NCBI GenBank assembly: GCA_000002435.2
Contig: AACB03000034.1
Direction: 5' to 3' (one strand)
DNA: 3,797 bases
Origin: Giardia intestinalis
Taxonomy: Eukaryota
Of the stretch, positions 1 through 3,797 are shown piece after piece. A program made the translations under genes and the position numbers. Position 1 is the stretch's first letter, and every line of letters begins with the position of its first letter. A model generated the notes under the pieces. The model saw nothing but the letters and a program-made list of their open reading frames with translations, ran no database searches and had not been told where the DNA came from.

Positions 1-44
1 GTGACAGTGGTAAGAAGCCCAACAAGGTGGTAGTGGGTGTTGAC
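1..44 (+). promoter_or_regulatory. Likely end of an upstream VSP unit (GTGAC, stop at 2-4) plus a short degenerate spacer
   Basis: ggtggtagtgggtgttgac (26-44) matches ggtgatagtgggtgataat (1602-1620) at 15 of 19 positions. All three frames are closed within 1-59. The start context gttgacATG resembles gtgtgatATG and agttgatATG. No AGTRAA is present here. Confidence 0.35.
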
Positions 45-562
45 ATGCTCTGTGGGTGATTGCAAGAGCTGTGTGGTGGACAATATATGTGGGAGTGTGT
101 TGATGGATTCTACTTTAAAGCTGGCGATGCACCCAGCTGTGTTAGCGCAGAGGCGTGTACTAATGAGGAGGGCTTCTTCATCGACGCTACCGAGAAGAAG
201 TGCACCGCGTGTGCAGATGATAATTGCGCTGTGTGCGTGGCCAAGGAGCAACAGAAGTGCAGCCTGTGTAAAACGTCTGGGACCAAGAAGTACCTGAAGA
301 AGGATGGCGAGTCCACAACCGGCACGTGCGTTGACACAGCTGGTTGTCCGGCAACCCACTACGTTGATGAAGAAGCAAAGGAGTGCAATACATGTGTGTC
401 GGCTGGAACAACTGACTGCACCACTTGTGAGAAAGGCGCCAACGGAGTGGTTTGTAAGACGTGTACGACTGATACGAAGACCATCTTTGGTCTCAACAGA
501 AAGTCGTGCGTTGCTAGTTGCCCTGCTAACTCTACCCCAAGGCCACCGGACAGGATAGCCAA

Positions 563-1483
563 GTGTGCGAGTGCAACGAAGGACTCCAACCTAATACTGA
601 ATCGACTGAATGCCAACCAATCAGTAACTGTAACACAGAGCACTGTTTGGAGTGCACCAGTGAAGGTGCCGATAAGGAGGTCTGTACAAAGTGTCTGTCT
701 GAGTACTACCTCACCCCAACCAGTCAATGCGTATCTGACTGCACGACCCTCAAGGGCTACTACGGAAATGACACTGACAGAAAGTGCAAGAAGTGCAACG
801 ATGCGTGCGTAGAGTGCAAGGGTGAGGGCGCTGATAAGTGTACGGCTTGTCCTGCTGGGAGGATGCTTCAGTATACAGATGCTGATACTCCTGCCAATGG
901 GGGCACGTGCATGAACCAGTGCAGCGTGAGTTCTACAAACGATGGATGCGCAGAGTGTGGGGCTCAGATAGGAGGAACTGCATACTGCTCAAAGTGCAAG
1001 AACACTCAACAGGCACCACTGGATGGCAACTGTGCGGCCAATACGCGAACACGATTTTGCACTACGGTGAGTAATGGAGCATGCACTCAATGTGAAAATA
1101 ACTACTTCCTCAAAGATGGCGGTTGCTATCAGACAGATAGACAGCCTGGCAAGCAAGTGTGTACTACAGTGCAGGGAGGAAAATGTACAAAATGTGCCAG
1201 TGGTCTAACGGCTGATAATGGCGATTGTTCCAATAAAAGGTGCCATCTTAGCTGCGAGACATGCACGGCTGCTAACGACGCTAACGCCTGTGCTACATGC
1301 AGCACTGGATATTACAAACCGCAGAGTGCTGGGACAAAGTGTAATCCGTGCTCTGAGGGGCTCGCTGGGTGCAGGCAGTGCACGGTGTCATCCACCGGTG
1401 CGTTCATGTGCTTCGTGATGGGCGACGGCACTGGCGACAACACCGGCGGAAGCGTCAACAAGAGCGGCTCTACTGGGCCATAG
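563..1483 (+). CDS. Largest open frame segment of unit 1 (VSP cysteine-rich ectodomain fragment, 306 aa ORF; the GTG start is an ORF-caller artefact)
   Basis: Supplied ORF 563..1483. CxxC repeats throughout, GGCY at 1118-1129, ends NKSGSTGP* just before the TM segment. Confidence 0.45.
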
Positions 1484-1485
1484 CA

Positions 1486-1568
1486 GGGATTCCGTGGCTG
1501 TGGTCGTTGTCGTGGGGGGCCTCGTGGGCTTCCTCTGCTGGTGGTTCGTGTGCAGGGGGAAGGCGTGA
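1486..1568 (+). other. C-terminal TM helix + CRGKA cytoplasmic tail + TGA stop of unit 1 (out of frame with ectodomain)
   Basis: Translates as ...[24 protein letters not shown]. Bases 1504-1590 are identical to 3424-3510. Confidence 0.8.
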
Positions 1569-1575
1569 CTTGGGT

Positions 1576-1582
1576 AGTGAAT
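1576..1582 (+). promoter_or_regulatory. Giardia polyadenylation signal AGTGAAT (AGTRAAY), 8 nt after the stop
   Basis: agtgaat at 1576-1582 directly downstream of TGA 1566-1568. Same spacing as in unit 2. Confidence 0.7.
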
Positions 1583-1594
1583 GCTGTACAATGT

Positions 1595-1645
1595 GTGATA
1601 TGGTGATAGTGGGTGATAATGGTGATGATAGTGGAGTGTGATATG
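1595..1645 (+). promoter_or_regulatory. Inter-unit spacer made of GTGATA/GGTGAT repeats running into the ATG (candidate promoter/initiator region)
   Basis: GTGATA at 1595, 1603, 1613 and 1638, GTGATG at 1622; gtgtgatATGcacaaagg. The core ggtgatagtgggtg (1602-1615) recurs at 26-39. Confidence 0.4.
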
Positions 1646-1970
1646 CACAAAGGCTGAGGGGGAGTGTGCACTGCTTGTAAAGCAGATAACGGCCTGTTCA
1701 AGAACCCAGTTACACCTCAGAAGCCTGGTAGTGAGTGCATCCTCTGTCATGATGTCAATGGGGCAGATGGATATACAGGGGTGGCTAACTGCGCACAGTG
1801 TACCAAGTCAGACAGTAGTCCAGGACCTGCCACGTGTACAGAGTGCCAAGATGGATACTACAAGAACTCTCAGACATGTGTCAATGTAATGAAGCTTGTC
1901 TGACCTGCGATGGAAGTGGTCAGAATCATTGTACATCGTGCCCAGAGGGGAAGTACCTGAAGAGTAATCA

Positions 1971-3341
1971 ATGTGTACAAGATACTGGATGCGATGGAAC
2001 ACTTATGCTGACCCGGAGTCGGGAACATGCAAGGCATGTAGTACGATACACGCAGAGTGCACGGCATGCTCCTTCGACAAGGCCACGGGGAAGCCGAAGT
2101 GCACTAACTGCGGGACCAATAAGACCCCCAGGACGGCCCTCGACGGGACATCGACCTGCGTGGCGAAGACGCTTGAAGGATGCGAGGGCGCTGACGAGGC
2201 CTTATTTATGAAGGAGGACAAAACGTGTGCTCTTTGTAGTGATGTGACAGATTCAACTCTTGGTAACGAAGGAAAGGCCAACTGCAAGACATGTACGAAA
2301 ACAGGAAGTGACAATCCAACCTGCTCAGCCTGTCTCGATGGATACTTCTTTGATAGTGGTACTAGTACATGTACAGACAAGTGTGGTGATAACTGTGCCA
2401 CATGCTCTGTTGCTGGTGATCCAAATAAGTGTGAAACCTGCAAGACTGGATACTTCTTAGTAACTACTACAGATCAACAGGGGAAGAAGTGCGTCCCATG
2501 CGATAGCGTAGACGATAAGGGTCGCGAAGGCTGCAGTGTCTGCTCTAACAACGGTGCTTTCAAGTGCACTGACTGTAAGCCTAACTATCGCAAGGAGGGC
2601 AGTACTGGCTCTGTCACATGCACCAAGATCTGTGAAGATGATACTGCCTGTGGAGGAACTTCTGGTGCCTGCGATGCAATAGTGATTGATGATAAGGGTG
2701 TAGAGCATCATTATTGCTCATACTGTGGAGAAGCTAATACGTATCCTATAGATGGGAAGTGTAATAGTGCTAAAGCAAATAATCAATGTGATCAAGGTGT
2801 ATGTACACAATGCACTAACAACTACTTCTTGTATATGGGAGGTTGTTACAAGGTTGATACAGTACCTGGACAACATATGTGCAAGACAGCAGCCAACGGT
2901 GTCTGTACTGCTGTTAATGCCAACAATAGGTACTTCATAGTCCCTGGGGCAACCAATCAGAATCAGTCTGTATTGGCATGTAGCAACTCCCTTGGCACAC
3001 TAGTAGGCACTGGTGATACCTCTAAGGCATATGTGGGGGTAGATGGCTGTTCGGCATGTACGGCCCCAGCAGCTCCATCTGAGACTGGTATGACTGCTGC
3101 TGTGTGTACAGCGTGTACCAACAACAACAAGCCCAACCTGGCTGGGAGCGGGTGCTTCGCATGTACCGTTGACGGATGCTCGCACTGTGGAGCAGGCGTA
3201 AGTGCGAGGCCTGTACCAGTAAAGACCAGAGGCCGAACACAGACGGAACGAAGTGCATCGCCTGCAATATCGACGGGTGCGTCAGGTGCAGCGAGGAGAA
3301 CAAGTGCGGCCAGTGTGGGACGACTACAGGCTGGAGGGTGA
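1971..3341 (+). CDS. Largest open frame segment of unit 2 (VSP cysteine-rich ectodomain fragment, 456 aa; its ATG is internal to the unit)
   Basis: Supplied ORF 1971..3341. CxxC-rich with a GGCY motif. The sequence before about 2000 and after about 3197 in this frame is non-VSP-like. Confidence 0.45.
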
Positions 3342-3399
3342 GGCGTGCGTGTCCACCAAGCCCAGCGGGGGCAACAGAAGCGGCCTCAGTACTGGTGCC

Positions 3400-3489
3400 A
3401 TAGCAGGGATCTCCGTGGCTGTCATCGCTGTCGTGGGGGGCCTCGTGGGCTTCCTCTGCTGGTGGTTCGTGTGCAGGGGGAAGGCGTGA
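3400..3489 (+). other. C-terminal TM helix + CRGKA tail + TGA stop of unit 2
   Basis: [30 protein letters not shown], with tgc 3472 ... tga 3487-3489. Confidence 0.85.
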
Positions 3490-3496
3490 CTTGGGT

Positions 3497-3503
3497 AGTG
3501 AAT
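3497..3503 (+). promoter_or_regulatory. Giardia polyadenylation signal AGTGAAT, 8 nt after the stop
   Basis: agtgaat at 3497-3503, in the same context as 1576-1582. Confidence 0.7.
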
Positions 3504-3516
3504 GCTGTACATATGT

Positions 3517-3555
3517 GTGATAGAGGGTGATAGATATGATAGTGGAGTTGATATG
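3517..3555 (+). promoter_or_regulatory. Inter-unit spacer of GTGATA/GATA repeats running into the ATG
   Basis: GTGATA at 3517 and 3527, then gatagatatgatagtgg, then agttgatATGcacaaagg. Confidence 0.4.
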
Positions 3556-3797
3556 CACAAAGGCCATAGTGGAGTGTGCACTGCTTGTAAGGCAGATAAC
3601 GGCCTGTTCAAGAACCCGGCTGCAACACCAGAGAAGGGTTAGCGAGTGCATCCTCTGTCATGATGTCAATGGGGCAGATGGATATACAGGGGTGGCTAAC
3701 TGCGCCACATGTACGGCACCAAGTGGTAGTCCAGGAGCGGCCACGTGTGATACCTGCAGAGATGGATACTATAAGAACGCTCAGACATGTGAGAAGT
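3553..3797 (+). pseudogene. VSP-family unit 3, 5' partial at window end; N-terminus paralogous to unit 2, one +1 frameshift
   Basis: ATG 3553 reads MHKGHSGVCTACKADNGLFKNPAATPEKG then hits TAG at 3640-3642. VSP reading resumes in frame 2 at 3644 (ECILCHDVNGADGYTGVANCATCTAPSGSPGAATCDTCRDGYYKNAQTCEK). About 80% aa identity to unit 2 residues 1658-1880. Confidence 0.7.

Follow-up and report, generated by a model that had tools for sequence, protein, structure and literature searches.

A probable segment of a WB-like VSP linear array composed of 5'-truncated pseudo-VSP units in Giardia intestinalis

Layout of the array

Does a dense head-to-tail run of VSP-like units in Giardia intestinalis represent a series of antigen genes, or an array of defective copies? 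We addressed this question for a stretch of 3,797 nt, which was analysed as a whole and is here called the window. With a probability of roughly 88%, the window is a segment of a WB-like assemblage A VSP linear array, consisting of 5'-truncated pseudo-VSP units that carry additional breaks of two sources. A head-to-tail array of truncated VSP units is an ordinary, already described feature of the G. intestinalis genome. The window matters little beyond its correct annotation, as VSP arrays of this species have been described since 2010.

VSP-like coding was found on the + strand only, where PF03302 matched many frame segments (lowest E-value 2.8e-46). Three units lie on this strand, separated by two junctions. 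Unit A (1-1568) is partial, with PF03302 matches on 530-1480 (E=2.8e-46) and 1419-1565 (E=2.9e-13). Unit B (~1638-3489), supported by frameshift-aware alignments to P0001, P0002 and P0004, is the sole complete unit of the array, although its 5' end is truncated. Of unit C, a third pseudo-VSP, only the 5' part (~3551-3797) lies within the window; it is 82–93% identical to the 5' block of unit B. The original prediction counted at least four units, but two stops give two junctions and hence three units. The opening bases GTGA, which had been taken for the stop of a preceding unit, sit within the coding sequence of unit A (..DSGKKPNK..) and not at a gene end.

The two CRGKA-TGA tails, at 1551-1568 in unit A (+; regex match TGCAGGGGGAAGGCGTGA) and at 3472-3489 in unit B (+; motif search), are identical. 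Each stop is followed after 7 nt by the poly(A) signal AGTGAAT (1576-1582 and 3497-3503, +), which overlaps an ATG at 1580 and 3501, respectively; the motif AGTRAAY was absent from the remainder of the window on either strand. The succession of TM, CRGKA, TGA and AGTGAAT that had been predicted for the unit ends was indeed seen at both tails in the window (n=2). GGCY motifs occur twice, at positions 1118 and 2838. Both junctions share the identical arrangement CRGKA-TGA-N7-AGTGAATG, and the junction repeats are near-identical (97% over 100 nt, followed by blocks of 88–93%) at a spacing of ~1,911–1,921 nt. Spacer 1 (1569-1637, +) is G/T-rich and low in C (4%); it contains a GGTGATAGTG-type microrepeat at 1590-1634 but neither an Inr nor an AT-rich initiator. 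Spacer 2 (3490-3550, +) is likewise low in C (5%), is rich in GATA and GTGATA motifs, and is 11 nt shorter than spacer 1. At both junctions the span from the stop to the next coding block is ~60–70 nt, within the spacer range of linear arrays. The prediction of a head-to-tail VSP array with tiny spacers was correct as to a dense same-strand tandem. What is repeated, however, is not an intact cassette: the 5' part and the signal peptide are missing, and the reading frames are interrupted.

Each unit runs from a cysteine-rich ectodomain through a conserved TM helix, CRGKA, TGA and AGTGAAT into a G/T-rich spacer of ~60–70 nt, and from there into the next unit. Such an array may have arisen by tandem duplication and unequal crossing-over, processes that may also maintain it, with the conserved 3' end, junction and 5' block as the region of exchange.

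In unit A, whose 5' end is cut by the window, a long-type C-proximal segment precedes the ectodomain fused to it, which is of the short 'VSP with INR'-like class. The best relatives of unit A, P0121 of isolate DH and P0122 of WB, are only 61–62% identical. Interpretation of unit A as two fused units, the first of them a 'unit 0' without TM, is unnecessary, because P0121 shows the same continuous architecture.

An Rfam scan of the window returned no RNA family. The ORFs on the minus strand (122–209 aa) matched no Pfam family and are taken to be spurious frames antisense to the coding strand. The window contains one weak inverted repeat, and a metagenome scan with the exact 30-nt junction gave 0 matches.

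Similarity to a WB protein

Over 2208-3486 (+), unit B matches XP_001705784.1, a VSP of G. lamblia ATCC 50803, in 423 of 425 residues (99.5%). The match requires repair of two deletions in the window, GCG[A]TAAG at 3198 and GGGG->GGG at 3317; both breaks are absent from the Sanger-derived ORF of this protein. In comparison, the best matches from assemblage E (P15) and assemblage B were at most ~60% identical. The original prediction held that species or assemblage could not be read from the sequence, yet unit B is 99.5% identical to a protein of WB (assemblage A1), and G. muris, with its GCRGK tail (PMC7641422), is excluded by the CRGKA ends. The source thus appears to be assemblage A, namely WB or a very close relative, with unit B as the only unit from which the WB origin is read.

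The remainder of the window has more distant relatives. A third protein search, in which the 5' part of unit A, the N-terminus of unit B and unit C were concatenated, found nothing near-identical (best ~64%), and no annotated protein exceeded ~64% identity for unit A, the 5' third of unit B or unit C. The window may thus come from a different isolate of assemblage A, or from a portion of the WB assembly that carries no annotation. The neighbouring RefSeq accession, XP_001705783.1 (P0023), matches neither unit A nor unit C. We rejected it as the neighbour of unit B in the window, since its C-terminus is unlike that of unit A, and its start cannot be reconciled with the last bases of unit C. P0001, P0002 and P0023 formed single-member clusters in the cluster look-up.

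Frame breaks

Every unit switches frame repeatedly, with ~15 frame breaks in total. The coding path of unit A runs through frames 3, 2, 1, 3, 2 and 3; after repair it comprises 493 aa with 13.2% Cys, 22 CXXC and 0 stops. Unit B contains five -1 breaks (~1656, 1880, 1996, 3198 and 3317), and its ~618 repaired codons have 12.3% Cys, 28 CXXC and 0 stops. In unit C, a -1 break at ~3566 and a +1 break at ~3640 compensate each other. The proposed 1-nt indels of all three units lie at about 27, 40, 94, 540, 1468, 1472, 1478, 1489, 1656, 1880, 1996, 3198, 3317, 3566 and 3640. Among the classified breaks, 13 of 14 were 1-nt deletions, and about half were located within short homopolymers. A cluster of deletions lies in the membrane-proximal and TM coding of unit A (1459-1500, +), where four events removed 5 nt in total in comparison with unit B. 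DNA alignment of 1459-1590 with 3375-3511 showed these 4 gap events and 5 mismatches, the mismatches being at separate positions, while a P0121-guided alignment placed -1 breaks at 1478 and 1489.

Most of the remaining frame breaks are more likely to be residual indel errors of assembly or sequencing than true mutations, judging from the near-exclusive occurrence of deletions, their clustering in the TM coding of unit A, the lack of nonsense codons after repair and the two breaks contradicted by the WB protein. Any division of the breaks between error and true mutation is tentative, because natural indels likewise favour homopolymers and deletions. At least one break is inherited, since units B and C have a break site in common. 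It is flanked by the Ala codon of ICTKA on one side and the Cys codon of VCTAC on the other (1639-1680 in unit B and 3549-3590 in unit C, +), where 11 nt are present instead of the 12 in intact paralogues; the 11 nt differ between B and C.

An alternative explanation, which we regard as possible but clearly the less probable, is that the sequence is accurate and that all ~15 breaks are real mutations in truly decayed pseudogenes. The inherited break at the same site in B and C fits this explanation, and the -1/+1 combination in unit C resembles a compensating pair of natural origin. However, ~1,100 repaired codons contained 0 nonsense codons, even though Cys codons are only one step away from TGA. 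Furthermore, unit B differs from the WB protein by at least two indels and a single small substitution cluster in 425 codons, whereas decay is normally substitution-heavy. It would also be unexpected for decay to place four deletion events within 38 nt of a TM segment that is normally highly conserved, and other members of WB arrays with the same junction are open ORFs of 387–662 aa.

The deletion-only breaks call for caution with the array regions of Giardia assemblies built from long reads or at low coverage, which may hold indel errors. Such errors would inflate pseudogene counts.

Mosaic tract and segmental exchange

Within unit B, a tract of 73 codons (2631-2849, +; residues 333-405 of the unit, with converted coordinates) is identical to the WB VSP XP_001703902.1 (P0002). 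The tract includes the GGCY motif at 2838 and sits in a background of ~66% identity, so that an identity of 73 residues would arise by chance at ~0.66^73 = 7e-14 per start. The closest paralogue also changes from segment to segment. The tract represents a mosaic or gene-conversion footprint, a further instance of the segmental exchange among VSPs that has been documented before. Gene conversion of segments with other VSP loci is thus probable, and the array may serve as a sequence reservoir.

Silent antigen archives that use gene conversion are found in several other pathogens, including the VSG pseudogenes of Trypanosoma brucei, the MSG genes of Pneumocystis, vls of Borrelia and the msp2 pseudogenes of Anaplasma. 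Like the window, these archives contain promoter-less and often defective copies, with conserved ends able to guide recombination and with mosaics shared with expressed genes. The VSG and MSG systems have been named as analogues (PMC7641422), and an archive role of the arrays is an existing, unproven hypothesis (Adam 2010, PMC2996952). The pseudo-VSP arrays of G. muris, often near telomeres, also consist of tandem copies without signal peptides, and phylogenetic evidence for recombination or gene conversion with intact VSPs has led to the proposal of a reservoir role (Xu et al. 2020, Microb Genom 6:mgen000402). Their tails read GCRGK, in contrast to CRGKA at both tails in the window, and their tendency to lie adjacent to telomeres is not apparent in G. 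intestinalis (Microb Genom 6:mgen000402).

A stronger version of this idea makes the unit an active participant, as donor or as recipient, in segmental gene conversion with WB VSPs elsewhere in the genome whose ORFs are intact, with the 219-nt tract at 2631-2849 as footprint and the block of TM, CRGKA, poly(A) signal and GTGATA spacer as anchor. If so, Giardia would generate new antigens from defective copies in a trypanosome-like manner, beside epigenetic switching. We consider this unlikely. Archives of the VSG and vls type are defined by one-way copying of segments from silent cassettes into an expressed gene during switching, whereas the window shows only a static mosaic footprint, the 73-residue tract. 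In contrast to those archives, Giardia has no demonstrated expression site, nor a demonstrated conversion event during switching. Switching in Giardia is considered to operate at the epigenetic or post-transcriptional level and not to involve DNA rearrangement (PMC2996952).

Start signals and 5' truncation

The pseudo-VSP reading of the units is strengthened by their 5' ends. The units align with complete VSPs only from ~residue 100 onwards (for unit B and the complete VSP P0003, from ~residue 108), and because they begin there, they have neither signal peptide nor initiator. In line with this, the PyAATGTT initiator was absent from both strands of the window, and the spacers contained no A/T run. 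None of the ATG-led ORFs had a signal-peptide-like N-terminus; the best hydrophobicity was 1.62, compared to 2.06–2.40 in real VSP signal peptides. An uninterrupted ORF from start to CRGKA, as in a complete VSP gene, was not found, owing to the ~15 frame breaks, some of which may be technical. The lack of a signal peptide, the lack of an initiator and the repeated frame changes had been overlooked in the original prediction.

ATGs are nevertheless present, at 12, 22, 31, 50, 56 and 74 nt past the first stop and at 12, 23, 46 and 63 nt past the second. The expectation that the next ATG would be 39–74 nt away was half right, as nearer ATGs occur too, at 12 nt past both stops. The first ATG after the stop overlaps the poly(A) signal (AGTGAATG). 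At junction 1, the longest ATG-led frame has at most 16 codons. At junction 2, the ATG at 3502 opens 46 codons, and the ATG at 3536 opens a frame to the window end (87 codons) that is out of phase for ~25 codons. The WB proteins P0002, P0009, P0011 and P0166 begin with 'MLYSDSDS..', which is the same junction translated from an ATG inside AGTGAATG.

One might argue that the units are functional VSP genes, individually expressed from the ATGs 12–74 nt past the upstream stop, and that all breaks are technical. After repair, the units have 12–13% Cys, 22–28 CXXC, GGCY, a TM and CRGKA, and the 2007 WB annotation called similar units starting with MLY VSP proteins. Yet, the repaired units are still without signal peptide and Inr, their ectodomain begins at ~residue 100 of complete VSPs, and the spacers are G/T-rich instead of the AT-rich Giardia initiator type. 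In complete WB VSPs, a signal peptide is present in 136 of 136 and an Inr in 135 of 136 (bioRxiv 2022.03.07.483299), whereas the Inr is absent from all downstream array members, none excepted (Adam 2010, PMC2996952). Moreover, the break common to B and C is located at the very start of the coding block. We therefore find it very improbable that these are functional genes; judging from the missing start signals, the units would not be expressed as surface proteins. For windows of this kind, the appropriate label is pseudo-VSP array member rather than antigen gene.

The pseudo-VSP units resemble the linear arrays of WB in several respects. More than half of the WB vsp genes are located in linear arrays, with spacers ranging from overlapping to 241 bp and a mean of 60 bp (Adam 2010, BMC Genomics 11:424, PMC2996952). 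As in the window, the units of these arrays have the same orientation, spacers of tens of nt, and a conserved 3' end with CRGKA and the extended poly(A) signal, and the downstream members lack an Inr, a signal peptide and a proper start codon. The current WB reference annotates pseudo-VSP arrays 'without proper start codons' (Xu et al. 2020, Sci Data 7:38), and pVSPs with coding split over three frames have been described (bioRxiv 2022.03.07.483299). WB arrays mix clades, and so does the window, where unit A belongs to the short class and unit B to the long class. In contrast to the open-ORF members of WB arrays (MLYSDSDS.., 387–662 aa), the window contains more breaks, and its junctions are without the LLFMGGCY..PGSE segment that those members have kept. 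Part of this difference is probably sequence error.

Relatives on long contigs differed from the window: L001 (isolate DH) and L002 (an ENA contig) proved to be lone or paired VSPs among ordinary genes, not arrays. L003 and L004, two clusters of assemblage B, do form arrays, with junctions unlike those in the window.

Family assignment

Assignment to the Giardia VSPs, as originally predicted, was borne out at the level of both genus and family. The first protein search yielded 213 homologues at E<=1e-3, all of them Giardia VSPs, with a top match of 99% identity. PF03302 scored above the gathering score on five frame segments. With the cut-off at 31.4 bits, scores on separate segments included 158.6, 74.6, 49.9 and 33.2. 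The repaired units contain 12–13% Cys, with 22 CXXC in unit A and 28 in unit B, the latter equal to 15.1 per kb; published VSPs have a mean of 12.6 CXXC per kb (PMC2996952). A TM helix precedes CRGKA and the stop; it is intact in unit B and becomes readable in unit A only once the breaks have been repaired. The extended PAS, at a median of 6 nt past the stop, is specific to VSPs and pVSPs (bioRxiv 2022.03.07.483299).

The weakest alternative places the window in another cysteine-rich family (HCMP/CRMP or HCP), or in an array of VSPs from G. muris or from an assemblage other than A. CXXC-rich ectodomains are indeed common to these families. The alternative is nevertheless hardly credible, as CRGKA and the extended PAS, both present in the window, are the defining marks of VSPs and pVSPs and are missing in most CRMPs (bioRxiv 2022.03.07.483299), the G. 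muris tail is GCRGK, the assemblage E (P15) and B matches stay at or below ~60% versus 99.5% for WB, and the junctions differ in the assemblage B clusters examined. Some of the database matches were named HCMP or HCP, and many 'HCP' entries are VSP pseudogene fragments (bioRxiv 2022.03.07.483299).

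Organization of the VSP array

The window contains three VSP units on the same strand: the partial unit A (1-1568), which ends in a CRGKA tail and stop, the complete unit B (about 1638-3489) and the partial unit C (about 3551-3797). The sequence TGCAGGGGGAAGGCGTGA, encoding CRGKA plus the stop, occurs exactly twice (1551-1568 and 3472-3489), with AGTGAAT 7 nt past each stop. Beyond these two copies AGTRAAY was absent from both strands of the window; GGCY motifs numbered two. In the direct-repeat analysis, the two junction regions line up in register, about 1,911-1,921 nt apart. 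A 100-nt block of 97% identity spans the end of the TM segment, the tail, the stop and the poly(A) signal, and is followed by blocks of 88%, 93% and 82% over the start of the next unit. With two registered and near-identical junctions, the head-to-tail arrangement is therefore real, far beyond chance, and the two tails and junction repeats confirm the original prediction on this point. That prediction had also counted at least four units, where two junctions delimit three, and had begun with the stop of a unit 0; this stop is absent, and the window's first bases are ectodomain coding sequence of unit A. Nor are the units intact cassettes: they are 5'-truncated, without signal peptide or initiator. 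Searches revealed no Rfam family in the window and no Pfam family on its minus-strand ORFs.

Family and source

The Pfam VSP profile PF03302 scored above cut-off on five separate frame segments. All matches in a protein search with 1968-3190 were Giardia VSPs, in line with the predicted genus. The best was XP_001705784.1 of G. lamblia ATCC 50803, and the next-best had 60-66% identity. In a frameshift-aware alignment of 2208-3486 with this WB protein, 423 of 425 residues were identical, which indicates that the source is G. intestinalis assemblage A, either isolate WB itself or one very closely related to it. Hence, the assemblage, previously thought unreadable from the sequence, can be determined. 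G. muris is ruled out as the source, because its VSP tail is GCRGK (PMC7641422) and the window's tails are CRGKA.

Unit A falls in another, shorter class of VSPs, and its best relatives are only 61-62% identical. Protein searches found no near-identical annotated protein for unit A, the 5' third of unit B or unit C. The start of unit A (1-560) resembles a segment that lies near the C-terminus in long-type VSPs (..CSVGDCKSCVVDNICGECVDG..; compare the paralogue P0004 and XP_001705783.1). This segment is followed, with no TM in between, by an ectodomain of the short 'VSP with INR'-like type, and P0121, a relative from isolate DH, shares this continuous architecture.

Start signals and spacers

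ATGs lie 12-74 nt past the first stop and 12-63 nt past the second, the first of them in each case within the poly(A) signal (AGTGAATG; 1576-1583 and 3497-3504). At junction 1 no ATG-led frame exceeds 16 codons; at junction 2, ATG 3502 opens a frame of 46 codons. None of the ATG-led ORFs of the window has a signal peptide, and neither strand contains a PyAATGTT initiator. Alignment to complete VSPs places the start of units B and C near residue 100 of the full-length protein; against P0003, a P15 protein with signal peptide, the unit start corresponds to residue 108 (..EICTKAEGG.CTAC..).

The spacers (1569-1642 and 3490-3552) are G/T-rich and extremely C-poor (4-5% C), unlike the AT-rich initiator type. 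They carry microrepeats of the GGTGATAGTG or GTGATA type, detected by TRF at 1590-1634 (period 9-10, 3-4 copies). The first is 11 nt longer than the second, a difference that suggests slippage.

This junction is also found in WB proteins. XP_001703902.1 and three further WB VSPs (P0009, P0011 and P0166) start with 'MLYSDSDS..AMWCGGDS..LLFMGGCY..EICT..', which is a translation from the ATG inside AGTGAATG through a GTGATA-type spacer. The ATG in the poly(A) signal is thus the annotated start of at least four WB proteins, which therefore open with inter-unit spacer and no signal peptide. The junctions in the window represent a shorter form, from which the LLFMGGCY..PGSE segment is missing.

Frame breaks

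The coding path changes frame about 15 times, including changes read directly from nt 1-100. Breaks in unit A lie at about 27, 40, 94, 540, 1468, 1472, 1478 and 1489, and those in unit B at about 1656, 1880, 1996, 3198 and 3317. The two in unit C, at about 3566 (-1) and 3640 (+1), compensate each other, so that frame 2 stays open from ATG 3536 up to the end of the window; about 25 codons of it are out of phase, between two in-phase VSP stretches.

All breaks but one are deletions, about half in short homopolymers, and after repair about 1,100 codons contain no in-frame stop. Compared with the Sanger-derived WB protein, unit B lacks a single base at two sites and carries one small cluster of substitutions; it is otherwise identical over 425 codons. 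In the TM and membrane-proximal region of unit A (1459-1500), four deletions that remove 5 nt in total fall within 38 nt, and this looks like a low-quality stretch of sequence. This region is normally highly conserved, and no substitutions occur at the four deletion positions. Both the indel-only pattern and the fact that other WB array members have open ORFs suggest that many breaks arose as errors of sequencing or assembly; we put the probability that they are mostly technical at about 0.6.

One break is certainly inherited, judging from its presence at the same site in two units. Units B (1639-1680) and C (3549-3590) both have 11 nt between ICTKA and VCTAC, where intact paralogues have 12, and these 11 nt differ between the two units; this -1 break is older than the duplication of the block. 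That all of the frame breaks are real seems rather unlikely. Whether the breaks are technical or real, the units would be non-expressible because of their 5' truncation.

Mosaic similarity and proposed array turnover

Nucleotides 2631-2849 of unit B match a different WB VSP, XP_001703902.1, at 73 of 73 residues; elsewhere the two share about 60-66%. The closest paralogue also varies by segment, with P0010 and P0011 at the N-terminus and P0004 at residues 151-176. Such apparent patchwork is typical of segmental gene conversion.

The window itself shows units in tandem with homogenised junctions, an absence of start signals, and a mosaic pattern of similarity. Presumably, the array grows and shrinks as unequal crossing-over takes place across its conserved 3' end and junction; gene conversion may swap segments between the array and other VSP loci, and array members would yield no surface protein. 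An archive role, already proposed for such arrays, is hypothetical.

This anatomy and the proposed mechanism match the published picture of WB vsp linear arrays, and the locus is of an already known kind. More than half of the WB vsp genes belong to linear arrays, in which the mean spacer is 60 bp; no downstream member has an Inr, and these members have been proposed as recombination cassettes (Adam et al., 2010, PMC2996952). The current WB annotation lists pseudo-VSP arrays whose members lack proper start codons (Xu et al., 2020). A 2022 preprint describes pVSPs with their coding sequence spread across three frames, and an extended PAS that is specific to VSPs and pVSPs (bioRxiv 2022.03.07.483299).

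Related loci in other isolates

Head-to-tail VSP clusters occur on assemblage B contigs as well, with junctions that differ from those of the window and with degenerate tails. On one such contig, from isolate GS (AHHH01000216.1, 3533-8440), three head-to-tail VSP genes are separated by spacers of 46 and 62 nt. One tail reads YRGKA in place of CRGKA, two genes have truncated or derailed TM ends, and one member retains a signal-peptide-like start (LLAIYLAVGVLAADC). Lone VSP genes among ordinary genes occur in isolate DH and in an ENA contig. Isolate DH (AHGT01000075.1) has a divergent VSP pair, at 6521-8539(-) and 10001-11260(+), encoding 672 and 419 aa; the 419-aa member, P0121, lacks a signal peptide. 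The two genes are non-identical, but past the stop their 3' flanks match perfectly over at least 110 nt.
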